From assembly GCF_024298765.1 (NCBI RefSeq), contig NZ_CP101210.1: a stretch of DNA of 64,000 nt. One strand, written 5' to 3'. Position numbers and translations under genes: made by a program. The stretch comes from Escherichia coli (GTDB lineage: Bacteria; Pseudomonadota; Gammaproteobacteria; Enterobacterales; Enterobacteriaceae). Positions 5,347-34,745 of the stretch are shown here, piece by piece. The stretch's first letter is position 1, and every line of letters starts with the position of its first letter. The notes beneath the pieces were generated by a model, which saw nothing but the letters and a program-made list of their open reading frames with translations, searched no databases and had not been told where the DNA came from.

Positions 5347-6569
5347 GCGAGTTGACTTATCTGGAAAAATTGCTGGATGGGGTTAAGGTTGAGTGGCAAA
5401 CACTAGGGAAAGTGCTTAAACGAACTAAAGGCACAAAAATAACCGCTGGGCAGATGAAAGCTCTTCACAAAGATAATGCGCCGCTTAAAATTTTTGCAGG
5501 AGGGAAAACAGTAGCCTTTGTTGACTTTAAAGATATACCAGAGAAAGATATTAATAGAGAGCCATCGATTATTGTTAAATCCAGAGGTATTATCGAATTC
5601 GAGTATTACGATAAACCATTCTCTCACAAAAATGAGATGTGGTCATATCACTCAAATAATGATGCGATAAGCATAAAGTATATTTATTACTTCCTAAAAA
5701 TAAATGAAGGATATTTCCAGAAAATTGGGGGTAAAATGCAAATGCCACAAATTGCAACTCCTGATACAGATAAGTTTGAAGTTCCAATCCCCTGCCCGGA
5801 TAATCCGGAAAAATCCCTTGCCATCCAGTCTGAAATCGTTCGGATTCTGGATAAGTTTACTGCACTTACCGCTGAGCTTACCGCTGAGCTTAATATGCGT
5901 AAAAAACAATACAACTACTATCGCGACCAGTTACTGAGTTTTGAGGATGGTGAGGTTGAGTGGAAGGCGTTAGGGACTATATGCCAAATTGGCGATGGCA
6001 ATCACTCATCAAAGTATCCTAAGGCGAATGAAATGATTGAGCAGGGGATACCCTTCATTCGTGGTACCAATATGGTGAATGGTACAATATGCAATCAAGA
6101 TATGAAGTACATATCTAAAGAAAAACACAATGAACTAAAAAAGGGGCATTTAAAAGCATTTGATGTTTTGATAGCTAATAGGGGAGAGGTTGGGAAGGTA
6201 GCATATGTTCCAGAGGGATATTCTGGATCTAATTTAAACTCCCAGTTAGCATGGCTTAGAGCCAACCCGGAAATTATCATTAATAGATATTTATTTTTCA
6301 TTCTTTGCTCATCAACCATACAGAATAAACTTTCTGGTGAAGGAGGGGCATTACAACAACTTACTATCAAGAACATAAAAAACATTCAGATACCTGTTCC
6401 ATCAATAACCGTTCAGAGCAATATCGTATCTTTTTTGGACAAGTTCGACTCGTTAACCAACTCAATCAGTGAAGGCTTGCCACGTGAAATCGAGTTGCGC
6501 CAGAAACAATACGAGTACTATCGTGATTTACTGTTCAGTTTCCCAAAACCTGATACTGTCAGTAATTAA
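5343..6569 (+). CDS. hsdS: Type I restriction-modification specificity subunit HsdS, type IC family, two target-recognition domains
   Basis: 408 aa; central conserved region [27 protein letters not shown] and C-terminal repeat [15 protein letters not shown]; the TAEL tandem repeat is the type IC (EcoR124I-family) hallmark. Confidence 0.85.
5868..5891 (+). repeat. 2 x 12-bp in-frame direct repeat (accgctgagctt) encoding TAEL-TAEL in the HsdS central spacer region
   Basis: Read directly in the sequence; in type IC HsdS the TAEL copy number sets the spacer length of the recognition site (EcoR124I vs EcoR124II). Confidence 0.85.
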
Positions 6570-6690
6570 TTGACCATTGCTACCGACCGGGCCACCTTAA
6601 CACCCGGTCTGTATATAGACTATTTTTTACGCGCCGGAAGTCACTCTTAACGCCCTTCCGGCCCTTGCCAGGCGGCACAAAGGATGCGCT

Positions 6691-9600
6691 ATGACTCATC
6701 AAACACACACCATTGCTGAATCCAATAACTTTATCGTCCTTGATAAGTACATCAAAGCTGAGCAAACAGGCGACAGCTATCAGAGCGAATCGGACCTGGA
6801 ACGGGAACTGATTCAGGACCTGCGAAATCAGGGCTATGAATTTATATCCGTAAAATCTCAGTCAGCGATGCTGGCCAACGTTCGGGAACAGCTTCAGAAC
6901 CTCAATGGTGTGGTGTTTAATGACAGCGAGTGGCGGCGTTTCACGGAGCAGTTTCTGGATAATCCGAGCGATGGCATCCTGGATAAAACCCGTAAAATTC
7001 ATATCGACTACATCTGCGACTTTATTTTTGACGACGGGCGTCTTGAGAACATCTATTTGATAGATAAAAAGAATCTCATGCGCAATAAAGTGCAGATTAT
7101 CCAGCAGTTTGAACAGGCAGGCTCTCATGCTAACCGTTATGACGTCACGATCCTGGTTAATGGTTTACCGCTGGTGCAAATCGAACTAAAAAAACGCGGG
7201 GTGGCGATTCGTGAGGCTTTCAACCAGATACATCGTTACAGTAAAGAGAGTTTTAACAGCGAAAATTCCCTGTTTAAGTATCTGCAACTGTTTGTCATTT
7301 CTAACGGCACCGATACCCGTTACTTTGCCAACACCACAAAGCGCGATAAAAACAGTTTTGACTTCACCATGAACTGGGCGAAATCAGACAACACGCTGAT
7401 TAAAGACCTCAAAGACTTTACCGCTACCTTTTTCCAGAAACATACTCTGCTTAATGTTCTGGTGAACTACAGCGTTTTTGACAGCAGTCAGACGCTACTA
7501 GTGATGCGACCGTACCAGATTGCTGCCACCGAGCGCATTCTGTGGAAAATTAAGAGCTCCTTTACAGCGAAGAACTGGTCAAAACCGGAAAGCGGTGGGT
7601 ATATCTGGCACACTACCGGTTCTGGTAAAACCCTCACCAGCTTTAAAGCCGCGCGTCTGGCAACAGAGCTGGACTTTATTGATAAAGTCTTCTTCGTGGT
7701 CGACAGGAAAGACCTCGATTACCAGACCATGAAGGAATATCAGCGTTTTTCGCCAGACAGCGTCAACGGCTCGGAAAATACCGCAGGCCTTAAACGAAAT
7801 CTGGATAAGGACGATAACAAAATTATCGTCACTACTATTCAGAAACTCAATAACCTGATGAAAGCAGAAAGCGACCTGCCTGTATATAATCAGCAAGTGG
7901 TGTTTATATTTGATGAATGCCACCGCAGCCAGTTTGGAGAAGCGCAGAAAAACCTGAAGAAGAAATTCAAACGCTATTATCAGTTTGGTTTTACCGGCAC
8001 CCCTATTTTCCCGGAAAACGCCTTAGGCTCAGAAACAACCGCCAGCGTATTTGGTCGTGAATTGCATTCGTATGTAATTACCGATGCGATTCGTGACGAA
8101 AAAGTGCTCAAATTCAAGGTGGACTACAACGATGTGCGACCACAGTTTAAGTCTTTAGAGACAGAAACTGACGAGAAAAAACTAAGTGCGGCTGAAAATC
8201 AGCAGGCGTTTCTTCATCCCATGCGTATTCAGGAAATCACGCAATATATTCTGAATAATTTCCGCCAGAAAACCCACCGTACTTTCCCTGGCTCCAAAGG
8301 TTTTAATGCCATGCTGGCAGTAAGCAGCGTGGATGCCGCGAAAGCCTATTACGCGACGTTTAAACGGTTACAAGAGGAAGCCGCTAATAAATCTACTACC
8401 TGTAAACCACTGCGTGTTGCGACAATCTTCTCCTTTGCCGCTAATGAAGAACAAAATGCGATTGGTGAAATATCCGATGAAACTTTTGATACCAGCGCAA
8501 TGGACAGCAGTGCTAAAGAGTTTCTTGACGCTGCAATTCGTGAGTATAACAGCTATTTTAAAACTAACTTCAGCACCGACAGTAAGGGTTTTCAGAACTA
8601 CTATCGTGATTTAGCCCAACGGGTTAAAAATCAGGATATCGATCTGTTAATTGTCGTGGGGATGTTTTTAACCGGTTTCGATGCTCCAACATTGAACACG
8701 CTATTCGTCGATAAAAACTTGCGTTTTCACGGCCTGATGCAGGCATTTTCCCGCACCAACCGTATTTATGATGCAACTAAAACCTTCGGTAATATCGTCA
8801 CTTTCCGCGATCTGGAACGCTCAACCATCGATGCCATAACGCTGTTTGGTGACAAAAACACCAAAAATGTAGTGTTAGAAAAGAGTTATGCAGAGTATAT
8901 GGAAGGCTTTACTGATGCTGCTACTGGTGAAGCTAAGCGCGGCTTTATGGCAGTAGTTGCAGAACTGGAACAACGGTTCCCTGACCCTGCCAGTATTGAA
9001 AGTGAAAAAGAGAAGAAAGACTTCGTTAAACTGTTTGGTGAATACCTGCGTGCCGAGAACATCCTGCAAAACTATGATGAATTTGCCACGCTGAAAGCCC
9101 TGCAACAAATCGATCTTAGCGATCCTGTTGCAGTAGAAAAATTCAAAGCAGAACATTATGTGGATGATGAAAAGCTCGCTGAATTGCAAACAATTCGTCT
9201 CCCTGCTGATCGCAAGATTCAGGATTATCGTTCTGCCTATAACGATATTCGCGACTGGCAGCGCCGTGAGAAAGAAGCTGAGAAAAAAGAGAAATCAACC
9301 ACTGACTGGGATGACGTAGTTTTTGAGGTCGATTTGCTGAAATCTCAGGAAATAAACCTGGATTATATCCTTGGTCTGATTTTCGAGCACAACAGACAAA
9401 ACAAAGGTAAGAGCGAAATGATCGAAGAGGTCAAACGCTTAATTCGTTCAAGCCTGGGGAACCGTGCTAAAGAGGGCCTGGTGGTCGATTTTATTCAGCA
9501 AACGAACCTGGATGATTTACCGGACAAAGCCAGCATCATTGACGCATTCTTTACGTTTGCTCAACGCGAACAGCAACGTGAAGCAGAAGCCTTGATCAAA

Positions 9601-9807
9601 GAAGAAAATCTCAATGAAGAGGCGGCGAAACGCTATATTCGCACATCTTTAAAACGCGAATACGCCACCGAAAATGGCACGGAATTAAACGAGACACTGC
9701 CCAGACTCAGTCCTTTAAATCCGCAATATAAAACGAAAAAACAGACTGTTTTTCAAAAAATTAGCGCATTTATTGAAAAATTTAAGGGGGTGGGTGGAAA
9801 GATTTAG
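6691..9807 (+). CDS. hsdR: Type I restriction endonuclease subunit HsdR (SF2 helicase/nuclease)
   Basis: 1038 aa; helicase motifs TGSGKT and DECHRSQ; RBS aaagga before the ATG; gene order M-S-R as in type IC systems. The TAG stop sits directly against the IS5 end. Confidence 0.9.
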
Positions 9808-18254: not shown

Positions 18255-18511
18255 ACCATTGTCAACCCCGTCAAATTCGCGGCAATCGAATTTGACGACA
18301 TAGTGACCAAAAAGGTTTACACCGCCCCGGGAACGGAACGAGGCAACAGACTTTACGATTTGTCGGCGCTGACTAAAATAGCGCCGATGTTTCAAATCGA
18401 GGATTGTTGTTATGTTGTTCTGGAAAAAGATGGTGAAGAAGTTCGACGCCTTTTCCGGTGATGCTGCCAACTTACTGATTTAGTGTATGATGGTGTTTTT
18501 GAGGTGCTCCA

Positions 18512-18787
18512 GTGGCTTCTGTTTCTATCAGCTGTCCCTCCTGTTCAGCTACTGACGGGGTGGTGCGTAACGGCAAAAGCACCGCCGGACATCAGCGCTA
18601 TCTCTGCTCTCACTGCCGTAAAACATGGCAACTGCAGTTCACTTACACCGCTTCTCAACCCGGTACGCACCAGAAAATCATTGATATGGCCATGAATGGC
18701 GTTGGATGCCGGGCAACCGCCCGCATTATGGGCGTTGGCCTCAACACGATTTTACGTCACTTAAAAAACTCAGGCCGCAGTCGGTAA
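18512..18787 (+). CDS. insA: IS1 InsA (DNA-binding protein / transposition inhibitor)
   Basis: 91 aa with zinc-finger CPSC...CSHC; classic IS1 InsA. Confidence 0.9.
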
Positions 18788-19209
18788 CCTCGCGCATACA
18801 GCCGGGCAGTGACGTCATCGTCTGCGCGGAAATGGACGAACAGTGGGGCTATGTCGGGGCTAAATCGCGCCAGCGCTGGCTGTTTTACGCGTATGACAGG
18901 CTCCGGAAGACGGTTGTTGCGCACGTATTCGGTGAACGCACTATGGCGACGCTGGGGCGTCTTATGAGCCTGCTGTCACCCTTTGACGTGGTGATATGGA
19001 TGACGGATGGCTGGCCGCTGTATGAATCCCGCCTGAAGGGAAAGCTGCACGTAATCAGCAAGCGATATACGCAGCGAATTGAGCGGCATAACCTGAATCT
19101 GAGGCAGCACCTGGCACGGCTGGGACGGAAGTCGCTGTCGTTCTCAAAATCGGTGGAGCTGCATGACAAAGTCATCGGGCATTATCTGAACATAAAACAC
19201 TATCAATAA
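18706..19209 (+). CDS. insB: IS1 InsB (transposase catalytic part, expressed as InsAB' by -1 frameshift)
   Basis: 167-aa ORF overlapping the insA 3' end in the -1 frame. Confidence 0.85.
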
Positions 19210-19688
19210 GTTGGAGTCATTACCAATGGTGGTAACCGTATAGTCCCAAATAAAGATAAAAATGCTTCATTCTTACTCACCATTCCATTTGCTAAGTCTG
19301 TTATTGATGAAATATTGAGTAAAGAAAATCTGTCATGGTGCTCGAAAAATACTTTGCCAATATTGCATGCTTTTAGTATTAGAGCTTTAACCTCCTAATT
19401 GCTGAAGTAATGATACAAGCTACAGTATTGGTGACGAATCTATAGACAAGGAGATAAAAACCAAATATCAGAATTATTTTTGATAGTGCTGGTAAAGAAG
19501 CGGTGTTTGATATCAGCATGTTTATCGGAAAAAAGCTTACCTGGAGCTTTGAAAAATTGCAAAGCAGGGCCTGACAATGAAGGCCCTAATACTGTACTGA
19601 ATGTTAACTCAGTACCAAATTACAAGGAAAAGTATTTTTTCTGGTAAGATTCTGTATACATAATAAATCACCTTATAGTTACAATAGG

Positions 19689-21533: not shown

Positions 21534-23450
<1,917 letters not shown>

Positions 23451-23463
23451 TACCGCAGGAGGC

Positions 23464-24918
23464 ATGATGGAGAGCATTAATAATCAAGTGCAGTCGGTAC
23501 GCCAGTTGCTGGCCATTCCCCAACTGGCCATCCCAAGCTATCAGCGACCTTACCGCTGGGGCTCCAAGAATATCTCGGATCTCTTTACCGATTTGGCAAC
23601 CCATCAGGACAAGAGCGCCTACCGGCTGGGCTCGGTGGTGTTTCATCAGCACACCGATAGTGAGCAGGGCGAAATGCTTGATATCGTCGATGGTCAGCAA
23701 CGCACCCTGACCCTGATGTTGACCGTCAAGGCGCTGATCGAGGTGCTGGATAACGAAAATCGCAGTGGCAAAGAGAAGAGTATCCGGTTTCAACGTCAGG
23801 ATCTGCGTGAGCAATTGCAGGTCTTGCGTGGACCTATCGATGCGTTTATGCAGCGCCAGCGCTTCCCCAGCCGGGATTCGGAGTTCAACCTCAGACGTAA
23901 CTATCTGGAGTTGCGTCGGCTGGTGGCCCGCCCTGAGTTTGACGAGCAGCAAATTGACTTTCTGCTCAACCGCTGTCAGGTGGTCTGCTTTGTACTGCAG
24001 GATATCTCGGAGGCGTTCCAGTTCTTCGATTCGCAAAATGCCCGGGGGCGCGATCTGGCTCCTCACGATCTGCTCAAGGCATTTCACCTGCGCGAGTTTG
24101 CCGGTCATGAGGCCAATCTCAAGGCCGAGGCGGTCGCCCATTGGGAGCGCCTGCCAAGCGACGAGCTGGCCAATCTGTTCGCCCTCTATCTCTATCGGGT
24201 ACGCCAGTGGGCCGAGGGCAAGTCGGCCCGCTACTTTGGCAAGGGGGAGGTGGATCTCTTCAAGGGGGTCAACCTAGATCGGGTAGGGCATTATCCTTAC
24301 GTGGAGTCGCTGCGCATCGCCCACCACTTTGTCGATGAGTACAACAGCCAGTACCAGCGCAAGATTGACGGCCAGTACATGACGTTTCCCTTTCATCTCG
24401 ACCAGATGATCATCAATGGTCGGCGCTTTTTCGAGATGGCCGAGTACTACCAGACGCGGGTGGCCGCCATCGTGGCCGAGGAGTCTGATTCCGGCAAGGC
24501 GCAATCTGCCACCCTGCTCGGCGAAACGCTGACACCGATGGCCAGCAAGGTGCTATCGACCCTGGGCAGCTACGAGCGTCGCCACCGCACCGGGGATCGT
24601 TATGTGCGGGCCATGTTCGACTGCGCCCTGATCTTCTATATCGACAAGTTCGGCAGCCAAGGGCTGTCACTGGCCATCGAGAAGTGCTTTATCTGGGCCT
24701 ATCGCTGCCGCATCCGCCAGCAGGTAGTGCAGTTGGCAACCATGGATAACTATGTGCTGGAGCACAATCTGATCCGTGCCATTCGTGATGCTCGTCTGCC
24801 GGGAGATCTGCACGGCTTCCCTTTGCCTAGCATGAGCAGTCGAGAGAACAAGAACAATCGCAATGGTGCCGAAGATGAGCTGGTCGGGCTGTTTCGGGAG
24901 ATGAAATATTATGAATGA
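23464..24918 (+). CDS. DUF262 (ParB/Srx-like NTPase fold) protein; candidate defence component, GmrS-like
   Basis: 484 aa; DUF262 signature [10 protein letters not shown] ... [13 protein letters not shown] and [18 protein letters not shown]; RBS aggagg before the ATG; 3' end overlaps the next gene by 8 bp. Confidence 0.75.
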
Positions 24919-26953
24919 TGCAGGCGTTCGCCCCTTTTCCATTCGTGCACTGCTTGAAGATCGCGCCCGCTATCTGGTGCCCATGTACCAGCGCAACTAT
25001 GCCTGGGGTGAGGGAGAGATCACCCAGCTGCTGCAGGATGTGCTGGATTATCAGCAAAAATTGGTCAGTGGTAAGGGGCCGCAAACCTACTATATCGGCA
25101 CCCTGGTGGTGTTTGCCCGGGACGATGGCAGTTTCGAGGTAATCGATGGCCAGCAGCGCTTTACTACCCTCTCTCTGCTGGCCAATTGGCTCAAACATCA
25201 CGCGATAGATTCGGTGGATATGAGCTGGTATCAGACCATCAACCTCGCTTTTGAGAGTCGCCCGATATCGAGCCATACCTTCGAGCGCTTATGGCAGGGG
25301 GTTGCCCCCGACGATTTGCGGGGGAGTACCTTCAATGAAGGTTTGGTGAACGGTTTTGAGCTGATTGGCAAGGCAATGGCGGAGCTTGGTTTGGTAGGGG
25401 CTAAACTGACGGCCTTTTGCGACTACCTCTTCAAGCATGTGCAGATCTCTCGTATCGAAGTACCCAAGGATACCGATCTCAATCACTTCTTCGAGGCGAT
25501 GAACAATCGCGGCGAGCAGTTGGAAAAGCATGAAGTGATCAAGGCGCGGCTGATGGAGACGCTGAACCAGATACCCGAGGAAGAGCATCGTCGCCAAAGT
25601 ATTCATATCCTGACCCGGGTATGGGATGCCTGCGCCAATATGGAGCGCTATATCCAGTACGGCTTTACCCCGCAAGAGCGCCACCGTCTGTTTGGTGAGA
25701 GCGACTGGGGTCAGTTTGTGCCCCGTGATTTTGCCCATCTGCTTGATCTGCTAGGATCCCCAAACACGGCCGACGCTGCCGATAAAAGCCGTGCAGCTGC
25801 CGGTAGCCAAGGGCGCACCTTGTTGGCCATTTTGCAGGATGACAAGCTTGATGGTGAGCAGACGGTGGAGGAGGAGAGCGCAGGCTCCGAGCGCTTTAAC
25901 AGCGTCATCAACTTCTCCAACTTCTTGCTCCATGTGCTGCGACTCGTGAGCCGCGACCCGGGTAATACGGAGGGGGTGCCGCTTGATGATAAACAACTGG
26001 TCGATCAGTTTGAGCTGCGAGTGATAAGGCAACCGGATCCAGTAGCGGCAGTTCAGCGTTTTATCTATGGCCTGTTAAAGAGCAAGTATCTGTTTGATCA
26101 GTTCATCATCAAGCGCGAGTTTGCCGATGGCAAGGATAGTTGGAGTCTGAAGCGGCTGCACTGGTATTCGGAAAAGAGCGTCAGTTACATCAATACCTTT
26201 GACAAGGATGAAAATGAGAATGGTTTCTCTGGTGTTAACCGGCGGGTCCTGATGTTGCTGTCGGCGTTTCATGTGTCGACCCCGACCCTGGTTTACAAAC
26301 ATTGGCTGAATGGTGCACTGAGATATCTGTTCGACAATTGTCACCCTGATCAACCGGTGGATGCCGGGGCTTATCTGTCCTATCTGGAGAGTCAGGCTCG
26401 CCGCTTTGTCTTCCAGCGCTTTTTAGCGCCTGGTGAAGGGGCTTCCTATTACCAGATGCTCTACCTTGATAACGCCCTGTTGCCCGCCATCAATGTGGAT
26501 GAGAGTTGGCACAAGGTGATTACATCCAAACTTCGCTTCGGTCATATCGAGAACAACTTTGTCTTCAACTTCCTCGACTATCTGCTGTGGGTACGAGATC
26601 GGAATAGCGACAAAGTTGCTGGCTCCTTTGAGTTCACTTTCCGCAGCTCGGTGGAGCACTTCTCACCCCAGCATCCGATGGATGGCTATAAACCGGTTGA
26701 GCAGAGTGCACTCCATTCGTTTGGCAACCTTTGCCTTATCAGCCACAGCAAGAACTCGCGCTTGAGTAACTTCCAGCCGCAACAGAAGCAGGAGCACTTT
26801 GAAGCAAGCCTTGCCAATAACCAGACTGATAGTCTTAAATTGCTTGCTATGATTCGGCTGATGAAAGATAAAGGTCGTTGGCTGGAAGATGAGATAGCTG
26901 TGCATCAACAAGATATGTTGCAGGTCTTACTATCCAATCAAATTCAGCAATAA
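24911..26953 (+). CDS. DUF262-DUF1524 two-domain protein (GmrSD-like type IV restriction-enzyme architecture: N-terminal NTPase, C-terminal His-Me finger nuclease)
   Basis: 680 aa; N-terminal YQRNYAW ... [11 protein letters not shown] and [17 protein letters not shown] (DUF262); C-terminal [14 protein letters not shown] ... [17 protein letters not shown] (DUF1524-like). Confidence 0.75.
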
Positions 26954-27023
26954 CGGATTGAATCTGTTGGTGATGCTGCCAACTTACTGATTTAGTGTAT
27001 GATGGTGTTTTTGAGGTGCTCCA

Positions 27024-27299
27024 GTGGCTTCTGTTTCTATCAGCTGTCCCTCCTGTTCAGCTACTGACGGGGTGGTGCGTAACGGCAAAAGCACTGCCGG
27101 ACATCAGCGCTATCTCTGCTCTCATTGCCGTAAAACATGGCAACTACAGTTCACTTACACCGCCTCTCAGCCCGGTACGCACCAGAAAATCATTGATATG
27201 GCCATGAATGGCGTTGGATGCCGGGCAACCGCCCGCATTATGGGCGTTGGCCTCAACACGATTTTCCGCCATTTAAAAAACTCAGGCCGCAGTCGGTAA
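27024..27299 (+). CDS. insA: IS1 InsA
   Basis: 91-aa ORF, one substitution (L to F) relative to copy 1. Confidence 0.9.
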
Positions 27300-27721
27300 C
27301 CTCGCGCATACAGCCGGGCAGTGACGTCATCGTCTGCGCTGAAATGGACGAACAGTGGGGCTACGTAGGTGCTAAATCACGTCAGCGCTGGCTGTTTTAC
27401 GCGTATGACAGGATACGGAGGACGGTTGTGGCGCACGTCTTCGGTGAACGCACTCTGGCCACACTGGAGCGTCTTCTGAGCCTGCTGTCGGCCTTTGAGG
27501 TCGTGGTATGGATGACGGATGGCTGGCCGCTTTATGAATCACGCCTGAAGGGAGAACTGCACGTTATCAGCAAGCGATTTACGCAGCGCATTGAGCAGCA
27601 TAACCTGAATCTGAGGCAGCATCTGGCAAGGCTGGGCAGGAAGTCACTGTCGTTCTCAAAATCGGTGGAGCTGCATGACAAAGTCATCGGGCATTATCTG
27701 AACATAAAACACTATCAGTAA
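27218..27721 (+). CDS. insB: IS1 InsB
   Basis: 167-aa ORF overlapping insA. Confidence 0.85.
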
Positions 27722-27736
27722 GTTGGAGTCATTACC

Positions 27737-27964
27737 CAGCTCATCGCGCAGTGAGCCAAAATCCGCATCTGAAGCACGGTCAAAAAGGTAATCCAGTTTG
27801 CGATTTACGTCGCTCAGCTGGTTGGTAACTATTTTCAACCCGGACTCCAGATCACCTGGGCCAGCTTCAAGGCAGCGCCGCAGATACTCTGACCGATTAC
27901 CACCTGAAACCAGGTCTATATAGGCCAAAAGTTCATCTGATACTTTTGCGGTTATTGTTGGCAT
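27737..27964 (-). pseudogene. Ribbon-helix-helix (CopG/Arc/TrwA-like) DNA-binding protein gene, 3' end interrupted by IS1
   Basis: MPTITAKVSDELLAYIDLVSGGNRSEYLRRCLEAGPGDLESGLK...: beta-strand then two helices as in RHH proteins; after ~76 codons the frame runs into the IS1 end (ORF 27656..27964). Confidence 0.5.
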
Positions 27965-28302
27965 CCAGTCCTCACTTTGTGCATTTTTTAAACGAAAAAA
28001 GGGTGTCTAATACGGTGAAATCATAGTATTACCAAAGTAATAAATAAAAATTGTTTTAAATCAGTAGGTTAGATTAGATTTGTAATGCCTGGGTAATACC
28101 GCAGCATGGCTAAATTTGGTTTTTTTTCTTTTAAATCAGTTGGATAGCGTGATTTATCACGCTGCGTTAGGTGTATAGCAGGTTAAGGGATAAAAAATCA
28201 TCTTTTTTTGGTAGGGCGATCTCCGTAGGTTAAGGGTCATTTGGCTAAAAAGCGTCCTATTCTTTGATGGTCATGCTTGCATGACCATCTGAGCAACCAA
28301 AA

Positions 28303-28448
28303 ACTACAGATAAACTACAGATAAACTACAAAAAACGTTTTGCCTTAGTATTGGAAGACTACAAATAGACTACAATAAAACTACAAAGAAACTACAAAAA
28401 ACATGACAGACTACAAATAGACTACAAGAATACTACAGATAAACTACA
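28303..28448 (+). repeat. Iteron array: 11 copies of ACTACA(A/G) in 11-bp register, three clusters (3+4+4); candidate centromere-like or operator site
   Basis: ACTACA at ~28303, 28314, 28325, 28358, 28369, 28380, 28391, 28410, 28421, 28432, 28443; preceded by a perfect palindrome gatggtcatgcttgcatgaccatc (28266-28289); just upstream of the StbA-like gene. Confidence 0.8.
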
Positions 28449-28509
28449 AAACTCGATTGACCCCTTCTTACGAGTGTTGTAGAGTCATTTTCATACAACG
28501 GAGGGGGTT

Positions 28510-28896
28510 ATGAATAAACCAGCAGATCTGAAACCCCGCAACTTATCGGCTGCTGTCAGATTGCGCCTAAATGAAATCGAGAACTGGCTGGACAGAGGGC
28601 TAACGCGGCATGAAATTGCTGAAATCCTCGACAGCGAATACAGCTTTTCGGTAACAGCCAAAGGGCTTGAGATGGCACTGTATAGAACGCGGCAAAACCG
28701 AAAAAATGTATTGCACAATACACATGATAAGAGTAGCGCGAAGGGTGCAGCGGAAAGTGTATTGCACAATACACAACCGTCTGAGCCTGAAGCGCAGGAA
28801 AGTGAAAAAGCAGAGAGTCCCGGCATTATTGATAAAGAATTCTTCAATAAAATCGGTGAGAATTTCGACCCTAAGAAGTTCAACAAAAAATTCTGA
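28510..28896 (+). CDS. Small putative DNA-binding protein, candidate iteron-binding partition adaptor (StbA/ParR-like); function inferred from context
   Basis: 128 aa; RBS ggaggg 6 nt before the ATG; directly downstream of the iteron array and upstream of a ParA-like gene fragment. Confidence 0.4.
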   Translation: MNKPADLKPRNLSAAVRLRLNEIENWLDRGLTRHEIAEILDSEYSFSVTAKGLEMALYRTRQNRKNVLHNTHDKSSAKGAAESVLHNTQPSEPEAQESEKAESPGIIDKEFFNKIGENFDPKKFNKKF

Positions 28897-28904
28897 GGTG
28901 ATTT

Positions 28905-29091
28905 ATGAAAGTAGCGGTAATTAATTACAGTGGCAGTGTTCGTAAAACCTTAATTTCATCTTACCTGTTAGCTCCGCGCCTGACTGGTGCAAAGTTCTAT
29001 GCGGTAGAGACTATCAACCAGTCTGCTTCCGATCTGGGTATTGAAAATGTGACCAGTTTTAAAGGTGACGACTTCTCACGTTTGATTGAGG
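28905..29091 (+). pseudogene. N-terminal fragment of a ParA/StbB-like ATPase gene, truncated by a solo IS1 end
   Basis: MKVAVINYSGSVRKTLISSYLLAPRL... resembles a deviant Walker-A start; ORF ends at 29096 where the IS1 terminal sequence begins. Confidence 0.4.
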
Positions 29092-29123
29092 GGTAATGAC
29101 TCCAACTTACTGGTAGTGTTTTA
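29092..29123. mobile_element. Solo IS1 terminal-repeat remnant (~32 bp)
   Basis: ggtaatgactccaacttactggtagtgtttta matches the IS1 end (ggtaatgactccaacttattgatagtgtttta) with 2 mismatches, then diverges. Confidence 0.7.
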
Positions 29124-29173
29124 GCGAAGTTAAGTGACACAATAGTTTAATCTGGAGGAATTAATGAAGAGTT

Positions 29174-32113
29174 ATGAGTAATTTTAATTTTCTAACAGAC
29201 ATCAGCCCTGAACTCGCTCAATTTGGTAAAAGTGCCGAGCTGTATTACCATGATGATAAGCAGGTAGCACTAGTGAAACTTAGGTGTTTTACTGAAGTAG
29301 TCGTTGGGGAAATTTATTCACGTTTATCGCTAACCCCACCTGTTCGTGATGATTTATATAATCGACTGCGCAGCTACGAATTCAAGGACGTTGTCAGTGA
29401 TAAGGGAATCTGGGCCAAATTAGATGTATTGCGACATAAAGGTAACAAAGCCGCCCACTCTAGCAATGGTTCAGACGAGATTTCCCTCAATGAAACACTC
29501 TGGTTAATCAAAGAAGCTTATTTAGTCGCCCGTTGGTATGCTCAAGCTATTCTCAATAAGCCTATCACTCCGCCAGAGTTTGTTGATCCGGTAAAACCTA
29601 TCGATCATACATCTCGCTTAGAAGCAGAGTTAGAACGGCAACGTCAAGAACTCAATAAACGAGAGGCTGAATTAAAGACCCAGCTTGCTGATAATAGTGA
29701 TAAATATCAACAACAGACGAGTGAGCTAATAGCTCAACTAGACGAAAAAAACGACACACTTTCCAATGTAAAAAAAGAGCAAGCACTATTACAGATTGAA
29801 CTTGAACAAAAACAAAAAGATCTAGTCGCTTCACAACAAGCCTTCTTTGATTACAGGACGCGTGAAGAGTTTAAACAAGCTAGTATTTCATCAGCTTCAA
29901 GCTTTGATCTTGATATGGAAGTGACGCGCCGAAATATTGATATATTTGATTGCTTTGAAGGAGTAAGTTTAACTAAAGGTCAAAACCAAATAGTTAAGCA
30001 AATAAATGAGTTTCTAACCGATACCAAACAAAACGTATTTTTACTTAATGGTTATGCAGGTACAGGTAAAACATTTATAACTAAAGGAATTACTCAGTAC
30101 CTAGAAAGAATTGGTCGTGAATTCGCTATTATGGCCCCGACGGGGAAAGCCGCGAAAGTGATATCAGACAAAACAATGCAACCTGCCAGCACTATTCACC
30201 GCGTGATATACAATTACGACAACGTGAAAGAGTACAAAGTTGACGGTGTGGAAGGGTCTGAAACTTATCGTTGCTATGCTGACCTTAAAGTCAATGTAGA
30301 TACTGCCGAAGCTGTTTATATAATTGATGAAGCGTCAATGGTTTCTGACAGATATTCCGATGGTGAGTTTTTTCGTTTTGGGAGCGGATATTTATTAAAA
30401 GACTTGCTCAAGTACATAAATATTGACCACAACGATCATAATAAGAAAGTTATTTTTATTGGTGATAATGCACAGTTGCCACCTGTTGGAATGAATACGT
30501 CACCAGCGCTAGATGCCAGTTACCTTAAAGAAAATTATCAAGTCGCTGTGGCTTCAGGGCACTTGACTGAAGTTGTTCGTCAAAAAGGTGATAGTGGTGT
30601 TTTGAACAATGCTGCCATGTTGCGTGACGGTTTAGAGCAAAATCTTTTCAATAAACTGAAATTTGAAGTTAATGATCATGATGTATTTAATTTGTCCTCG
30701 GAAAATCTACTTAGCACTTATCTAGACTCATGTGATAGAAAAGTTAGCCGTACAGGAGAAAGTATTATTATTGCTTCTTCAAACCGACAAGTAGCTGAGT
30801 ATAACCGTTTGGTTAGAGAGTACTTCTTTACTGGTCAACAGCAAATGGTCGCGGGAGATAAAGTCATTTCGGTAGCAAATCACTATCGAGCAGACGCTTG
30901 TATTACCAATGGTGAATTTGGAATGATCAAGGAAGTACTATCTCCTCATTCTGAGTTGATTAGTGTTGACATTAGCGTCAAAGGTGACACTGGTGACATG
31001 GTTAAGCGAAAAGTAAATCTGAGTTTTAGGGATGTGATTCTAGGCTTTCGCAACGACTACGGTGAACCATTCTTCTTTGAAGCCAAAATTGTAGAAAACC
31101 TACTTTACAATGATCAGCCGACCTTATCGTCAGATGAGCACAAAGCACTCTATGTTCACTTTTTAAATCGACACCCAGAACTGAGACGTAAAGGTAATGA
31201 ACAAAAGCTTAGAATTGCATTATTGCAAGATCCTTATTTCAATGCTTTTAAACTTAAGTTTGGTTATTCCATTACTGGACACAAAGCACAGGGTAGCGAA
31301 TGGAAAACTGTTTTCTTACAGTGTCAAACACACCAAAAAGCCTTAACTAAAGATTACTTCCGCTGGTTATACACCGCTATAACGAGAACTTCTGGCATCC
31401 TGTATGTAATGAATCCACCTCAGTTGCGCTTAGGAGATGGAATGAAAATAGCAGGAGCGTACCAACCCAAAGCAGTAAACCTAGACAATTCTGCTCCTGA
31501 AGGCGTTGAGGTTGTGCGACCAAGTACCGAAGCAACGAACTCAGTAGCCACAGCGAAGTTTGATTTTCAGACTGACATCCCGCAACTTAAAAAGCTATAC
31601 CAACTTGTTGATGCATGTATTGAAGGTACAGGGATTACTGTAGTGGATGTCCTTCATTATAACTATCAAGATCGTTACATCTTGCAGCGCGGGAATGAGC
31701 AGGCTTCGATAAGTTTCAATTACAAGGGTAACTGGAAAGTGTCTGGCGTAAAGAGCATTACTCAAGATGGGTTCGATGTTGAACTCATGGCTTTGCTTGG
31801 TCAATTAGAAGGTACTTTGCTCGATGTACCTGAGCCTTCAAAGGATACTCAGTTCCATTTTTCAGAGCCATTCTTAGAAGAGTTTTATCTAAATGTAATG
31901 GATCAAATCAACAGTGTTGGAGCTGATATAAGCAAAATTGAATCTCGTTCATTTTGTGAAAGATATGCATTTGTTAAAGGCAATGAGTTGGCGGTAATTG
32001 AGTTTTGGTACAACAAGTCTAGCCAGTTTACTAAAGTTCAACCTATGCCTCAGCTTAGTAATTCCACAAGGCTCATTGACGAAATAATATGTCAAATAGG
32101 TGTGCTTCTATGA
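29174..32113 (+). CDS. Large SF1B (RecD/Pif1/Dda-like) helicase with an uncharacterised N-terminal helical domain and a coiled-coil linker; candidate defence effector/sensor
   Basis: 979 aa. Helicase motifs: Walker A NGYAGTGKTF, IMAPTGKAAKV, Walker B IIDEASMV, motif III VIFIGDNAQLPPV, motif V/VI SITGHKAQGSEWKTVFL. N-terminal ~130 aa contains LDVLRHKGNKAAHS (possible DUF4145/HEPN-like R-x7-H); residues ~140-230 are a heptad-rich E/Q/K/L segment. No relaxase motifs. Confidence 0.75.
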   Translation: MSNFNFLTDISPELAQFGKSAELYYHDDKQVALVKLRCFTEVVVGEIYSRLSLTPPVRDDLYNRLRSYEFKDVVSDKGIWAKLDVLRHKGNKAAHSSNGSDEISLNETLWLIKEAYLVARWYAQAILNKPITPPEFVDPVKPIDHTSRLEAELERQRQELNKREAELKTQLADNSDKYQQQTSELIAQLDEKNDTLSNVKKEQALLQIELEQKQKDLVASQQAFFDYRTREEFKQASISSASSFDLDMEVTRRNIDIFDCFEGVSLTKGQNQIVKQINEFLTDTKQNVFLLNGYAGTGKTFITKGITQYLERIGREFAIMAPTGKAAKVISDKTMQPASTIHRVIYNYDNVKEYKVDGVEGSETYRCYADLKVNVDTAEAVYIIDEASMVSDRYSDGEFFRFGSGYLLKDLLKYINIDHNDHNKKVIFIGDNAQLPPVGMNTSPALDASYLKENYQVAVASGHLTEVVRQKGDSGVLNNAAMLRDGLEQNLFNKLKFEVNDHDVFNLSSENLLSTYLDSCDRKVSRTGESIIIASSNRQVAEYNRLVREYFFTGQQQMVAGDKVISVANHYRADACITNGEFGMIKEVLSPHSELISVDISVKGDTGDMVKRKVNLSFRDVILGFRNDYGEPFFFEAKIVENLLYNDQPTLSSDEHKALYVHFLNRHPELRRKGNEQKLRIALLQDPYFNAFKLKFGYSITGHKAQGSEWKTVFLQCQTHQKALTKDYFRWLYTAITRTSGILYVMNPPQLRLGDGMKIAGAYQPKAVNLDNSAPEGVEVVRPSTEATNSVATAKFDFQTDIPQLKKLYQLVDACIEGTGITVVDVLHYNYQDRYILQRGNEQASISFNYKGNWKVSGVKSITQDGFDVELMALLGQLEGTLLDVPEPSKDTQFHFSEPFLEEFYLNVMDQINSVGADISKIESRSFCERYAFVKGNELAVIEFWYNKSSQFTKVQPMPQLSNSTRLIDEIICQIGVLL

Positions 32114-33534
32114 ATGAGCCAGCTAATCGTACAGTAAATAATTTGAGAAAGAGCGGAGACCTGCAAGGGGCTTGGGAGTTTGGTTTTCAAGCGTTGCAGG
32201 CAGCTCCCCAAGATACTTACTTGAAAGGTGCTTTATTTTGGGTGTGTTATGAGTTTCTTAAGCACCAGCTTGAAAATCTAAATAAGCGAGCGAGTTCTTC
32301 AAACAACTATCGTCCTACTGATTTTGAATTTGAGCAAATAGAGAACTTGCTGCAAACCATAGTAAATTTAGATATTGCTACTGGCGGCCTAGAGTACAAA
32401 ATGCTGCTGGTTCAGTTTAAGAAGAGTTTGGAATGGTTTCCAACCTTGATTCACCTTGTGCTTCGACATCAAACTGTACTATTTGATGATGAGGCTAAAA
32501 CACCTTTTCAAGCTGAAAAAGGTGAAGTGCCAAGTTTGATGCTCTCAACAGCACGCCAAGTGGCGAGTGCATGGCTTAGAGCACGAGAGTATTGGCATCT
32601 AGATCTTAACCAAGTGATGGCATTTATTAACCAAACACGCGAGCAAGCCTCTGACACTAAACATATGATGTGGCTTGATTACGACCAAGCGAAGTGCCTT
32701 GTTGTTGCGGGCCAATACGATCAGGCTCGCGAACTCATTCTACCCATTTTAAGAAAGAAGCAAAAAGAGTCTTGGGCTTGGGGAGCGTTGGCTGCTACTT
32801 ATTCAAAACAAGATCAGCGTTTAGCAATGAAGTTTTTTGCTAGGGGAATAGTATCCGCACATGACGTTACTTTTAGTTTACGTTTATTACAGGGAATTAT
32901 TCCTTTATTACTTGCAAATCAACAGCAAGCTGAAGCCTCAATGTGCCTAAAAACGGCTATTGCGGCTTATCAAGCCCATGGGTGGAAGCTAAAGCAAGAG
33001 CTAGAACAGCTATCTATGCAGGCTTGGTATGATTCTGGTGTCGATGAGAAGCAACTGAGTCCTTTTTTAAACTCTATTTCTCACGACGCTTTAAATTACT
33101 TGCATGGGCCGATGGAGAAGGTTGTTGCTATCGTAGAGAATATCCATAAATCCGGTAAAGGCTTTCAAGTATTCGTAAATAAGTCGACATCACTATCAGT
33201 TCGCATGGGGGTTCATAAAGGTAAGCAGAAACCTCAGGCTGGTGACTATGTCGAGCTATCCGTAGCGAGTGTTGATGGAAACAAAGAAGTAGTAGCTTCC
33301 TCATCGTCCAAGCAAGTAGATATGGCTGATGTTTCGTATGTAGAGGGTACGCTTCGAATAGCACCCAAAGGCTTCGGATTTGTCGAGGATACTTTTGTTC
33401 CTCCCTTTGTTATAGGTAATTTAAAAAATGAAACAAAAGTCAGAGCACTCCGTATCATGAGTTGGGACAAATCTAAAGCTCGCCACAACTGGAAAGCGAT
33501 TAAGTTAACGGAACTAAATTTTAATGAAGACTAA
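32110..33534 (+). CDS. Uncharacterised protein with N-terminal TPR-like helical repeats and C-terminal cold-shock/OB-fold-like region, translationally coupled to the helicase
   Basis: Start at MNEPANRT (ATG 32110, overlapping the helicase stop; ORF-track start 32089 rejected); C-terminal ...GTLRIAPKGFGFVEDTFVPPFVI resembles the GFGF cold-shock/S1 motif. Confidence 0.65.
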   Translation: MNEPANRTVNNLRKSGDLQGAWEFGFQALQAAPQDTYLKGALFWVCYEFLKHQLENLNKRASSSNNYRPTDFEFEQIENLLQTIVNLDIATGGLEYKMLLVQFKKSLEWFPTLIHLVLRHQTVLFDDEAKTPFQAEKGEVPSLMLSTARQVASAWLRAREYWHLDLNQVMAFINQTREQASDTKHMMWLDYDQAKCLVVAGQYDQARELILPILRKKQKESWAWGALAATYSKQDQRLAMKFFARGIVSAHDVTFSLRLLQGIIPLLLANQQQAEASMCLKTAIAAYQAHGWKLKQELEQLSMQAWYDSGVDEKQLSPFLNSISHDALNYLHGPMEKVVAIVENIHKSGKGFQVFVNKSTSLSVRMGVHKGKQKPQAGDYVELSVASVDGNKEVVASSSSKQVDMADVSYVEGTLRIAPKGFGFVEDTFVPPFVIGNLKNETKVRALRIMSWDKSKARHNWKAIKLTELNFNED

Positions 33535-33591
33535 GTCACTTTCCGGCGAAATCGAGTTAGGACAGGCTCAAGAATTAGCCGAGGTCGAATA

Positions 33592-33688
33592 ATGGCAACC
33601 CGAGTAGAAATGATTATCGAAACGCTCAAGGCGAACCCCGACAAGAAGTTTACTGCTCGGGACTTAGCCAAAGAATTTGTGCTTCGAT
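33592..33688 (+). pseudogene. First 32 codons of a third gene (winged-helix / HARE-HTH or Mrr-N-like N-terminus), truncated by the IS903-like element
   Basis: RBS gagg 7 nt before ATG 33592; MATRVEMIIETLKANPDKKFTARDLAKEFVLR then the frame enters the IS terminal repeat at 33689. Confidence 0.45.
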
Positions 33689-34745
33689 GGCTTTGTTGAA
33701 TAAATCGAACTTTTGCTGAGTTGAAGGATCAGATCACGCATCTTCCCGACAACGCAGACCGTTCCGTGGCAAAGCAAAAGTTCAAAATCACCAACTGGCC
33801 CACCTACAATAAAGCCCTCATCAACCGTGGCTCCATAACTTTCTGGCTGGATGATGAAGCTATTCAGGCCTGGTATGAGTCAGCAACACCTTCTTCACGA
33901 GGCAGACCTCAGCGCTATTCTGACCTTGCCATCACGACTGTGCTGGTCATTAAACGCGTATTCAGGCTGACCCTGCGCGCTGCGCAGGGCTTTATTGATT
34001 CCATTTTTTCTCTGATGAACGTTCCGCTACGCTGCCCGGATTACAGCTGTGTCAGCAGGCGGGCAAAGTCGGTTAATGTCAGTTTCAAAACGCCCACCCG
34101 GGGTGAAATCGCACATCTGGTGATTGATTCCACCGGGCTGAAGGTCTTCGGTGAAGGCGAGTGGAAAGTCAAAAAGCATGGCCAGGAACGCCGCCGTATC
34201 TGGCGTAAGCTGCATCTCGCCGTTGACAGTAAAACACATGAAATCATCTGTGCAGACCTGTCGCTGAACAACGTTACGGACTCAGAGGCCTTCCCCGGGT
34301 TAATCCGGCAAACCCACCGGAAAATCAGGTCAGCCGCCGCCGATGGCGCTTACGATACCCGGCTATGTCACGATGAACTGCGGCGTAAGAAAATCAGCGC
34401 GCTTATCCCTCCCCGAAAAGGTGCGGGTTACTGGCCCGGTGAATATGCAGACCGTAACCGTGCAGTGGCTAATCAGCGAATGACCGGGAGTAATGCGCGG
34501 TGGAAATGGACAACAGATTACAACCGTCGCTCGATAGCGGAAACGGCGATGTACCGGGTAAAACAGCTGTTCGGGGGGGCACTGACGCTGCGTGACTACG
34601 ATGGTCAGGTTGCGGAGGCTATGGCCCTGGTACGAGCGCTGAACAAAATGACGAAAGCAGGTATACCTGAAAGCGTGCGTATTGCCTGAAAACACAACCC
34701 GCTACGGGGGAGACTTACCCGAAATCTGATTTATTCAACAAAGCC
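33689..34745 (+). mobile_element. IS903/IS102-like element (IS5 family), ~1057 bp
   Basis: Inverted ends ggctttgttgaataaatcg (33689-) and the reverse complement ...gatttattcaacaaagcc (-34745); single transposase ORF; flanking 9-mers tgcttcgat / gttgccaaa do not match. Confidence 0.85.
33766..34689 (+). CDS. IS903-family transposase
   Basis: ORF 33721..34689 (322 aa from the track start); 307 aa if started at GTG 33766, the size I recall for IS903 transposase. Confidence 0.8.
   Translation: MAKQKFKITNWPTYNKALINRGSITFWLDDEAIQAWYESATPSSRGRPQRYSDLAITTVLVIKRVFRLTLRAAQGFIDSIFSLMNVPLRCPDYSCVSRRAKSVNVSFKTPTRGEIAHLVIDSTGLKVFGEGEWKVKKHGQERRRIWRKLHLAVDSKTHEIICADLSLNNVTDSEAFPGLIRQTHRKIRSAAADGAYDTRLCHDELRRKKISALIPPRKGAGYWPGEYADRNRAVANQRMTGSNARWKWTTDYNRRSIAETAMYRVKQLFGGALTLRDYDGQVAEAMALVRALNKMTKAGIPESVRIA

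Follow-up and report, generated by a model that had tools for sequence, protein, structure and literature searches.

One of the closest known relatives of the locus analysed here is the stability module of the IncW plasmid R388. There, StbA binds direct repeats termed stbDRs (9 bp plus a 2-bp spacer, in two sets of five) and represses its own promoter, and plasmid stability requires StbA in trans and the repeats in cis (PMC3098194; bioRxiv 10.1101/2022.04.29.490116). StbA suffices for stability without StbB, and in the absence of StbB its binding in cis blocks transfer (PMC3098194). All functional evidence for StbA systems comes from R388 and none from IncN plasmids, so that any mechanism proposed for the present locus is a transfer from R388. 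The IncN plasmids R46, pKM101, pCU1 and the KPC plasmid 9 share the order and orientation traK ← oriT → stbA stbB, and the oriT of pCU1 has been described in terms of hairpin, TAG, pentanucleotide and post-nic sub-regions. Plasmid 9, typed as conjugative, MOBF and MPF_T, carries this region intact as traI-traJ-traK ← oriT → stbABC with ACTACA iterons.

Positions 27737–29123 of the window (the whole 64,000-nt stretch of Escherichia coli DNA that was analysed) very probably derive from the oriT and stbA region of an IncN1-type conjugative plasmid with a MOBF relaxase and an MPF_T transfer system. The fragment is 1.36 kb long, reads traK′ ← oriT → iterons, stbA promoter, stbA, stbB′, and is flanked by a full IS1 to the left and by 32 nt of an IS1 end to the right. 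Gene order and orientation are those of the IncN plasmids, and plasmid 9 additionally shares the ACTACA iterons and an StbA that is nearly identical; its intact traK ← oriT → stbABC region is 93% identical to the segment. The IncN plasmids carry these genes intact, whereas this chromosomal fragment has traK cut at codon 76 and stbB at codon 62. Plasmid records matching the segment number 1884, with coverage of at least 80% in 602; identity to hundreds of plasmids is 98–99%, and there is 100% identity to E. coli 2020CK-00188, whose chromosome carries the gene under the annotation stbA. The plasmid module concerned is well studied and already annotated in databases. Its presence flags the surrounding chromosomal DNA as plasmid-derived, brought in from plasmids of the Klebsiella/Enterobacter type along with a candidate defence system. 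A preliminary description had proposed an oriT-proximal stb module remnant of a conjugative plasmid, which agrees with the matches to the NCBI StbA and StbB models and with plasmid 9. It had also likened the layout to that of R388; the segment is indeed collinear with both R388 and R46, but the module is of the IncN and not the IncW type.

Both outer genes are remnants. On the left, traK′ (minus strand, 27737–27964) retains codons 1–76 of the 138 in traK, the gene for the relaxosome accessory protein of IncN plasmids, and shares 91% amino acid identity with residues 1–76 of R46 TraK. The ribbon-helix-helix-like N-terminal part is kept, and the C-terminal part, which in TraK resembles the C-terminus of R388 TrwA and is homologous to it, is lost. 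Domain models gave just a weak MazE-like match at the N-terminus, Pfam holds no family for full-length TraK, and dN of traK′ is at least as high as dS. The gene is cut by a complete IS1 of 768 bp (plus strand, 26969–27736; boundaries from blastn and the terminal repeats), which contains the insA and insB ORFs, is annotated as an IS1 transposase with programmed frameshift, and adjoins the plasmid fragment with its right-hand terminal repeat. The ribbon-helix-helix gene cut by IS1 of the preliminary description is therefore traK. On the right, stbB′ (plus strand, 28905–29091) retains the first 62 of the 238 codons of the ParA-like ATPase gene, is 95% identical to R46 StbB residues 1–62 and aligns to positions 1–61 of the 233 of NF041292. 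It has lost the glycine of the Walker A motif by mutation (GSVGKT to GSVRKT; G13R by comparison with plasmid 9), and its frame crosses into the IS1 end, with a stop at 29096, in keeping with the truncated ParA-like gene first described downstream of a 128-aa gene. Because stbB is reduced to these 62 codons with a mutated Walker A motif, and stbC is missing, the locus is a fragment of an stbABC operon and not a complete system; stbA is followed by neither an intact stbB nor stbC. No further IncN gene was found in the 64-kb window, stbC, traJ, traI, T4SS genes and the replicon all being absent.

The 32 nt at 29092–29123 (plus strand) are a terminal-repeat remnant inverted relative to the left IS1, with which they form inverted-repeat arms of 33 nt that are 97% complementary, and they are the mark of an old IS1 insertion that truncated stbB; the preliminary description had offered no reading of them. 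The IS1 at this right junction is longer in plasmids with the same flanking sequence, two of which have longer inverted IS1 remnants there, and has been reduced to 32 nt here. Since the same stbB′ junction, with longer IS1 remnants, occurs on plasmids in which traK is intact or cut at other points, it looks older than the IS1 in traK; a second IS1 later cut traK in a sublineage. The identical truncated unit is present on Klebsiella and E. coli plasmids typed as IncFIA, some of them also IncFIB, and window positions 26969–33947 are 98.7% identical to Klebsiella IncFIA plasmids over 7.0 kb, with both junctions spanned. This points to decay on plasmids first and chromosomal capture afterwards, the reverse of the order initially proposed, as both truncations were already on plasmids with identical junctions. 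The unit sits in a 7-kb stretch that extends from the IS1 to just before IS903B and includes the candidate defence pair PDC-M16. The trimmed unit, joined to the PDC-M16 genes, circulates on Klebsiella IncFIA plasmids and has been captured in E. coli chromosomal islands.

Eleven ACTACA(A/G) iterons occupy 28303–28449 on the plus strand, in clusters of 3 + 4 + 4 that start at 28303, 28314 and 28325; at 28358, 28369, 28380 and 28391; and at 28410, 28421, 28432 and 28443. Spacing inside the clusters is 11 bp (TRF likewise gives a period of 11), and from cluster to cluster the first step, of 33 bp, keeps the phase while the second, of 19 bp, breaks it. The motif occurs 18 times on both strands of the 64-kb window against about 9 expected; eleven copies within 147 bp on one strand exclude chance. 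The array is single in the window and on each plasmid examined, including plasmid 9, and relatives have 10–12 copies that differ by whole 11-bp units. The preliminary description had placed eleven 11-bp-phased repeats in three clusters upstream of the 128-aa gene, and the exact copies could all be located. These 11-bp direct repeats, arranged in sets immediately upstream of stbA, correspond to the arrays of the StbA family, and we infer that they form the StbA binding array, which would serve both as a centromere-like stbS site and as the operator of the stbA promoter. A putative promoter (TTGACC, 17-bp spacer, TAGAGT; plus strand, 28457–28485) begins 8 nt downstream of the final iteron. It was recognised by its fit to the consensus and is invariant in relatives, and the region contains no more such matches than chance would give. 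A ribosome-binding site, GGAGGGGG (28500–28507, plus strand), precedes the gene.

The intact stbA (plus strand, 28510–28896; WP_001039463.1) encodes 128 aa that begin with a helix-turn-helix domain, continue through a disordered linker containing two VLHNT repeats, and end in a short C-terminal region that is conserved. Homology searches of this protein and of the ribbon-helix-helix protein had been suggested at the outset as a check, and they recovered the NCBI StbA model for the former (NF041290, 205.7 bits against a cut-off of 100) and R46 TraK for the latter. The N-terminal ~70 residues match the tri-helical helix-turn-helix of the solved R388 StbA DNA-binding domain (PDB 7pc1), which was the best match, at E 5.6e-6, of a profile built without R388; the alignment used for structure prediction included the R388 sequence. 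A PDB search with the single StbA sequence did not retrieve R388 StbA, Pfam returned no StbA family and just Clr5 at E 0.045, and PHROGs and PADLOC had no match.

What ties the protein to the repeats is a comparison of eight StbA genes from six sequence lineages with four iteron types. In three of them an N-terminal domain like that of the window StbA is paired with ACTAC(A/T) iterons, even though pKP037-3 and pRHB42-C16_3 have a different C-terminal half. pC686_4 has the C-terminal half of these two plasmids, but a different N-terminal domain and RGACA iterons, and p1116-1 has the N-terminal type and iterons of pC686_4. A third N-terminal domain occurs with TACA(T/C)CA iterons in R46, RCS25_p and pKOR-b08d, and the iteron type of R388 is TTGCATCAT. 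Because a change of N-terminal domain is accompanied by a change of iteron sequence, and a change of C-terminal half is not, the series supports the view that StbA binds the ACTACA repeats. If confirmed, such a natural domain-swap series linking the StbA N-terminal domain to iteron specificity would interest plasmid biologists.

The comparison also defines how far the known systems resemble the locus. R46 has 13 copies of a TACA(T/A)CA iteron, which we take to be direct repeats of 11 bp, together with another specificity type of iterons and N-terminal domain, and its StbA is 51% identical overall. R388 likewise has a small StbA with a homologous N-terminal helix-turn-helix domain (24–29% identity over that domain), a divergent relaxosome accessory gene, a ParA-like stbB downstream, and about ten direct repeats with 11-bp periodicity, in sets directly upstream of stbA and adjoining oriT (PMC3098194). 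It differs in the repeat sequence and in having two sets of five instead of 3 + 4 + 4 with the third cluster out of phase, and its StbA, with a protein identity of only about 24%, has neither the VLHNT repeats nor their palindromes. R388 also has extra stbDR pairs at other promoters, whereas an exact iteron motif search of IncN plasmids found no such extra pairs, so the regulatory reach may differ from that of R388.

Tandem short direct repeats in AT-rich DNA near plasmid genes also resemble iteron-type replication origins, and the array could in principle belong to a plasmid replicon remnant whose repeats are bound by a Rep initiator. We consider this very improbable: the period is 11 bp and not ~22 bp, no rep gene adjoins the array in the window, where a tblastn search with R46 RepA found no match, and in R46 and plasmid 9 the homologous array is flanked by oriT and stbA and is ~11 kb away from the gene for the replication initiator. 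The correspondence between iteron sequence and StbA N-terminal domain argues against it as well. Still more remote is a phage operator or immunity region, in favour of which one can say no more than that such regions, too, combine repeats and palindromes ahead of a gene for a small DNA-binding protein. Even a sensitive blastn search of 50,697 phage records gave 0 matches, StbA has no counterpart among the PHROG families, and the close relatives are all plasmids or plasmid-derived islands. Both readings, which the preliminary description had named as capable of overturning it, are already contradicted.

The traK–stbA intergenic region is wholly retained and contains the elements expected of an IncN (MOBF11) oriT, namely an inverted repeat and a nic core lying between the accessory gene and the leading region. 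Its AT-rich traK-proximal part (28026–28099) carries GTATTAC/GTAATAC inverted repeats which, by analogy with TrwA, probably comprise TraK binding sites and the traK promoter region; the IncN-type oriTs that were compared have GTAATAC motifs at the corresponding position, in two cases degenerate. An 18-bp inverted repeat, AGCGTGAT-TT-ATCACGCT (28146–28163, plus strand), would form a hairpin directly 5′ of the predicted nic (single-stranded fold −7 kcal/mol, z −2.9). All features of the preliminary description are present and this one alone was misplaced, lying 5 nt to the right of the approximate 28141–28158 first given. Other IncN lineages have compensated versions and R388 has GCGCACCGAAAGGTGCGT at the equivalent position, which suggests a relaxase recognition element, not a separate operator. 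The predicted nic region GGTGT|ATAGC (28170–28179, plus strand) would place the nick between 28174 and 28175, and the nic core and its 3′ flank are identical to those of R46. The arrangement AGCGTGATTTATCACGCT followed by GCGTTAGGTGT|ATAGC parallels GCGCACCGAAAGGTGCGT-ATTGTCT|ATAGC in R388 (TTGTCT|ATAGCC), and the transferred strand would be the plus strand, leaving towards stbA. Two AGGTTAAGGG direct repeats 47 bp apart (28180–28236, plus strand) lie 3′ of nic, and R46, IncN2-type plasmids and R388 have TTAAGG(G/A) pairs in the corresponding position.

Between nic and the iterons lies a perfect 24-bp palindrome, GATGGTCATGCTTGCATGACCATC (28266–28289, exactly where first reported), able to form a hairpin or cruciform. 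Its single-stranded fold reaches −9.6 kcal/mol (z −4.8), a value attained by 0 of 200 shuffles. No change is seen in the inner stem, TCATG/CATGA, and the arms of the outer stem covary: five of the ten pairs are changed on both sides, 94% of alignment cells are paired, and the covariation score was reached by 0 of 500 shuffles. It is a conserved hairpin, apparently selected for its structure, on the leading side of nic. Rfam gave matches at chance level only, and a scan of a genome collection for the hairpin with its upstream motif returned three loci, one of them a chance match. A covarying hairpin beside nic would interest plasmid biologists if confirmed.

Transferred from R388, the proposed mechanism would run as follows. 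The StbA helix-turn-helix would bind each 11-bp unit, placing successive monomers on one face of the helix, and the complex would repress the adjoining stbA promoter. On plasmids, it may act as an NTPase-independent, centromere-like site that spreads plasmid copies over the nucleoid, and, unless opposed by StbB, it may keep the adjoining oriT out of reach of the conjugation machinery. TraI, aided by TraK, would nick nic, and the stb side would enter the recipient first. The chromosomal module would have no partition job, so that an autoregulated stbA and an orphan oriT are what presumably remains. No relaxase, coupling protein or T4SS gene was found in the 64-kb window; the oriT is structurally complete but would be usable just with TraI, TraJ, TraK and StbB supplied in trans by an IncN1 plasmid. 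It thus resembles orphan oriT elements that are mobilised in trans, such as small mobilisable plasmids lacking a relaxase and chromosomal copies of oriT, in which the cis-acting oriT is likewise complete while its relaxase and T4SS are missing; unlike integrative mobilisable elements built around oriT, this copy came as cargo of IS-bounded DNA. Should the strain gain an IncN1 plasmid, the orphan oriT could in principle seed transfer of adjacent chromosomal DNA.

Alternatively, the trimmed unit of oriT, iterons and stbA might be no dead remnant but a selected minimal cassette, which would give non-IncN plasmids StbA-dependent stabilisation and mobilisation by IncN helpers and, on the chromosome, would let IncN1 plasmids mobilise the island or the chromosome, with stbA and the PDC-M16 genes entering first. 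Several points favour this reading: about 1200 plasmids carry the ACTACA array with the first part of stbA, 803 being typed as 'mobilizable' by MOB-suite, at least 80% of StbA is covered in 1875 of 2009 protein-search records, and the IS1 cuts on both sides spare stbA and the traK–stbA intergenic region, including a nic core that is the same as in R46. Furthermore, p1116-1, a 4.2-kb ColE1-type plasmid without a relaxase, has only an IncN-like oriT and an stbA-like gene with its own RGACA iterons and is an independent example of the oriT and stbA minimal pair; that R388 StbA alone is enough for stability fits as well (PMC3098194). On the other hand, dN ≥ dS in traK′ and the Walker A mutation in stbB′ are as expected for decay, a chromosome has no need of a partition site, and persistence could equally reflect hitch-hiking with the IS elements and the PDC-M16 genes. 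As cis-bound R388 StbA blocks transfer without StbB, the oriT here would moreover depend on StbB in trans. The stbA gene itself, with just three differences from plasmid 9, is too close to it for a dN/dS test of purifying selection, and a literature search found no mobilisation experiment. Taken together, we regard selection as a cassette as possible but rather doubtful, and a decayed plasmid fragment carried along by IS-bounded DNA remains our reading of the unit.

Finally, two palindromes lie inside stbA, TGTATTG-CA-CAATACA (28707–28722) and GTGTATTG-CA-CAATACAC (28757–28774), and both encode the VLHNT repeats of StbA. The same 15 nt are kept in seven of seven palindrome copies from three lineages, despite heavy synonymous divergence elsewhere in stbA. 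IncN2-type plasmids have the compensated variant TGGATTG-CA-CAATCCA, with VLHNT changed to GLHNP, and the same lineage-specific variant occurs in non-coding DNA directly upstream of an SprT-like leading-region gene. Several candidate binders were not supported: IncN1 and IncN2 have the same presumed GTAATAC sites for TraK but different palindromes; pKP037-3 has the N-terminal domain of the window StbA without its palindrome variant; ArdK has no palindrome copies near ardK or near the repeated leading-region promoters; and LexA would require a different spacing. A literature search on the intragenic palindrome gave nothing relevant. We tentatively propose, with confidence a little short of even, that the palindromes may be operators for a plasmid-encoded dimeric regulator and dictate the VLHNT peptide repeats. 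If so, expression of the stb operon and of a leading-region gene would be linked in IncN plasmids through a hidden regulator, and operator-like palindromes written into the stbA reading frame would, if confirmed, be of interest to plasmid biologists.

The fragment at 27737-29091, in the order traK′ ← oriT → iterons → stbA → stbB′, is a truncated form of a module that is already known and annotated in databases. The preliminary description, made from the sequence alone, had proposed an oriT-proximal stb module of a conjugative plasmid; the finding is real and was correctly interpreted, as shown by collinearity with R46, matches to StbA and StbB models and the layout of plasmid 9. By megablast, the 1356-bp segment matched 1884 plasmid records, chiefly from Klebsiella, Escherichia and Enterobacter, in which the 128-aa gene is annotated as “plasmid stabilization protein StbA” and the gene upstream as “traK”. 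Complete E. coli genomes held 475 matching plasmid places and 39 chromosomal ones, and one chromosome, that of 2020CK-00188, is 100% identical. The classical IncN plasmid R46 carries traI-traJ-traK on one strand and stbA-stbB-stbC on the other, separated by a 512-bp intergenic oriT region, a gene order collinear with the fragment. A chimeric-query search returned 99 plasmids combining ACTACA iterons with full-length stbB and stbC; among them is the KPC plasmid 9 (NC_011383; typed as conjugative, IncN, MOBF, MPF_T), to which the fragment is 93% identical overall and 99.2% in stbA. The window holds no further IncN gene (relaxase, coupling protein, StbC, replication initiator and VirB4 were all not found), and searches with the segment gave no phage match and no meaningful Rfam match.

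The gene identities suggested earlier were supported by NCBI models: the 128-aa protein passes the curated StbA model NF041290 (205.7 bits, cut-off 100), and the stbB′ product aligns with StbB model positions 1-61. Pairwise identity to StbA of the IncW plasmid R388 is 24–29%, with a collinear alignment of the N-terminal domain. When a profile of five IncN-type StbAs, leaving out R388, was searched against the PDB, the top match was the crystal structure of the R388 StbA DNA-binding domain (7pc1, E 5.6e-6); a Foldseek comparison of StbA was not significant. R46 StbA is 51% identical to that of the window, with a conserved C-terminus but a strongly diverged N-terminal domain, whereas identity to R46 reaches 91% for TraK′ (76 remaining codons) and 95% for StbB′ (62 of 238 codons). 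TraK belongs to no Pfam family; its N-terminus resembles a ribbon-helix-helix strand-helix, with a weak MazE-type match, and its C-terminus, homologous to that of R388 TrwA, is missing from traK′. Codon 13 of stbB′ (28941-28943) turns the Walker A motif into GSVRKT, against GSVGKT in intact IncN StbB (G13R), and traK′ has dN ≥ dS, both as expected of dead gene ends; the Walker A change is consistent with decay after truncation.

The eleven ACTACA(A/G) repeats reported earlier, in three clusters with 11-bp spacing, were recovered as exact units starting at 28303/28314/28325, 28358/28369/28380/28391 and 28410/28421/28432/28443, and Tandem Repeats Finder also returned a period of 11. The period is exactly 11 bp inside each cluster; clusters 1 and 2 are 33 bp apart and in phase, and clusters 2 and 3 are 19 bp apart and out of phase. 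The array is far above chance expectation; both strands of the whole 64-kb window together have only 18 matches, against about nine expected. Each plasmid examined has one such array, and close relatives carry 10, 11 or 12 copies, differing by whole 11-bp units. A promoter-like element, TTGACC-17-TAGAGT, identified by consensus match only, begins 8 nt past the last iteron.

Comparison of eight fetched StbA genes (six lineages by sequence, with four types of iteron) suggests to which part of the protein the iterons belong. The window and plasmid 9 share the N-terminal domain MNKPADLKPRNLSAAVR... and ACTACA iterons. In pKP037-3 and pRHB42-C16_3, a clearly related N-terminal domain is joined to a wholly different C-terminal half, and the iterons are ACTAC(A/T); pC686_4 has that same C-terminal half with another N-terminal domain and RGACA iterons. 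The 4.2-kb plasmid p1116-1 has the N-terminal type of pC686_4 and, like it, RGACA iterons. A third N-terminal type (R46, RCS25_p and pKOR-b08d) goes with TACA(T/C)CA iterons; the R46 array, 13 copies of TACA(T/A)CA at 11 bp, is unlike that of the window, and the R388 iteron is TTGCATCAT. In this natural domain swap, the iteron sequence thus goes with the N-terminal HTH domain, whatever the remainder of StbA.

In R388, StbA sites are 9-bp repeats with 2-bp spacers, in two sets of five 5′ of stbA; stable inheritance needs the repeats in cis and StbA in trans, without a plasmid NTPase, and the stbA promoter is repressed about 50-fold by its own product. Repeat-bound StbA blocks conjugation unless StbB is there, and plasmids lacking StbA gather at the poles and show increased transfer (PMC3098194; bioRxiv 10.1101/2022.04.29.490116; PMC3937220). 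By analogy, StbA monomers of the IncN module would bind along the 11-bp array on one face and repress stbA, and the StbA-iteron complex may position the plasmid on the nucleoid and control access to the adjacent oriT.

The oriT itself could be read in some detail. The 18-bp palindrome AGCGTGATTTATCACGCT noted earlier is present; it occupies 28146-28163, so that its approximate placement was 5 nt too far left. An inverted repeat just 5′ of nic occupies the same place in R388, and other IncN lineages retain the hairpin through compensated changes. It is followed by GCGTTAGGTGT|ATAGC in the window and by GCGTATTGTCT|ATAGC in R388. The hairpin, TAG, pentanucleotide and post-nic parts described for the IncN oriT in the pCU1 relaxase paper are all readable here. 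The nick is predicted between 28174 and 28175, and the + strand would be the transferred strand, with stbA leading. An IncN-like oriT (GTAATAC repeats, hairpin, GGTGTAT core and conserved hairpin) is also found with RGACA iterons and a stbA-like gene at 1100-1862 of the ColE1-type p1116-1 (Salmonella, NZ_CP091635.1), a natural minimal oriT + stbA hitch-hiker.

The small added value of this analysis lies in side observations, among them a hairpin beside the iterons and, inside stbA, a set of palindromes. Between nic and the iterons, the perfect 24-bp palindrome of the preliminary description lies exactly at 28266-28289. Seven lineages share the inner stem TCATG/CATGA without any change, and their outer stem varies yet remains complementary; the loop changes from CTTG to GCTA in one lineage. 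Both sides changed in 5 of 10 pairs, 94% of cells pair (30–41% in slid registers), and none of 500 shuffles reached the covariation score. The single-stranded fold of the palindrome comes to -9.6 kcal/mol (z -4.8). It is a conserved, structure-selected hairpin; R388 has a different, unrelated palindrome at this position.

Within stbA, VLHNT peptide repeats are encoded by TGTATTG-CA-CAATACA palindromes (28707-28722 and 28757-28774), which look like an operator for a putative dimeric regulator. An identical 15 nt occurs in 7 of 7 copies from three lineages (window, R46 and RCS25_p), and 18 of 49 conserved N-terminal codons differ synonymously between R46 and RCS25_p stbA. IncN2-type plasmids have TGGATTG-CA-CAATCCA, a single compensated base-pair change that turns V-L-H-N-T into G-L-H-N-P. 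The variant proper to each lineage also occurs in non-coding DNA directly 5′ of a SprT-like gene and, in IncN1 plasmids, at one further intergenic site; palindromes of this kind lie at 30005-30018 and 22548-22561 in one comparison sequence (L004) and at 8034, 8067, 8115, 9510 and 9538 in another (L023). The IncN plasmids examined showed no other occurrences, and a literature search found no paper containing the motif.

Inverted IS1 ends flank the segment, a point previously left uninterpreted: to its left lies a complete IS1 (26969-27736), and to its right a 32-nt IS1 terminal repeat (29092-29123). The region 26969-33947, comprising IS1, fragment, IS1 remnant and a RecD2-like helicase and TPR gene pair, matches Klebsiella plasmids typed IncFIA, such as pKSB2_6C_2, as a single stretch with 98.7% identity, and one database protein stands for the 63-aa StbB′ product of many plasmids. 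The stbB′ junction is shared by two plasmids in which traK is intact or cut elsewhere, and the inverted IS1 remnants at their junctions are longer; it therefore seems that the right-hand junction was in place before IS1 entered traK. Both truncations thus arose on plasmids before chromosomal capture, and the earlier proposal of capture followed by decay in the chromosome was not sustained, since the junctions already exist on plasmids. A second E. coli chromosome has the trimmed unit in a different left-hand context.

It is possible, and we put it forward tentatively, that oriT, iterons and stbA form a stabilisation/mobilisation cassette selected on plasmids, either as a rival to or an extension of the reading as a truncated module. 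This is plausible on plasmids because about 1200 of them, mostly non-IncN, have the array and the first part of stbA, 80% or more of the protein is covered by 1875 of 2009 records in a StbA search, neither IS1 cut reaches into the intergenic region or stbA, and p1116-1 has the same minimal oriT + stbA pair on 4.2 kb without a relaxase. A role in partition would be meaningless in a chromosome, where the truncated module would come down to stbA under its own control and a latent oriT.

PADLOC matched the two genes on the right-hand side of the fragment (29174-33534) to its candidate defence system PDC-M16. The first encodes a 979-aa RecD2-like helicase whose N-terminus is type-I-restriction-like (PDC-M16A, 1348 bits), the second a 481-aa TPR protein whose C-terminus is GFGFV cold-shock/S1-like (PDC-M16B, 833 bits). 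On IncFIA plasmids of Klebsiella the pair is carried along with the oriT-stbA fragment. Directly left of IS1, at 23464-26953, lie two neighbouring DUF262-type genes of 484 and 680 aa; the HEC-06, Orf5 and SspE defence models match them only weakly, and only at the N-terminus. Type I restriction-modification-like genes at 3802-9803 share 75–81% identity with their counterparts on these Klebsiella plasmids, and a second complete IS1 lies at 18457-19224. Taken more widely, the window looks like a defence island of mosaic make-up, rich in IS elements, close to dld and the L-lactate permease gene.
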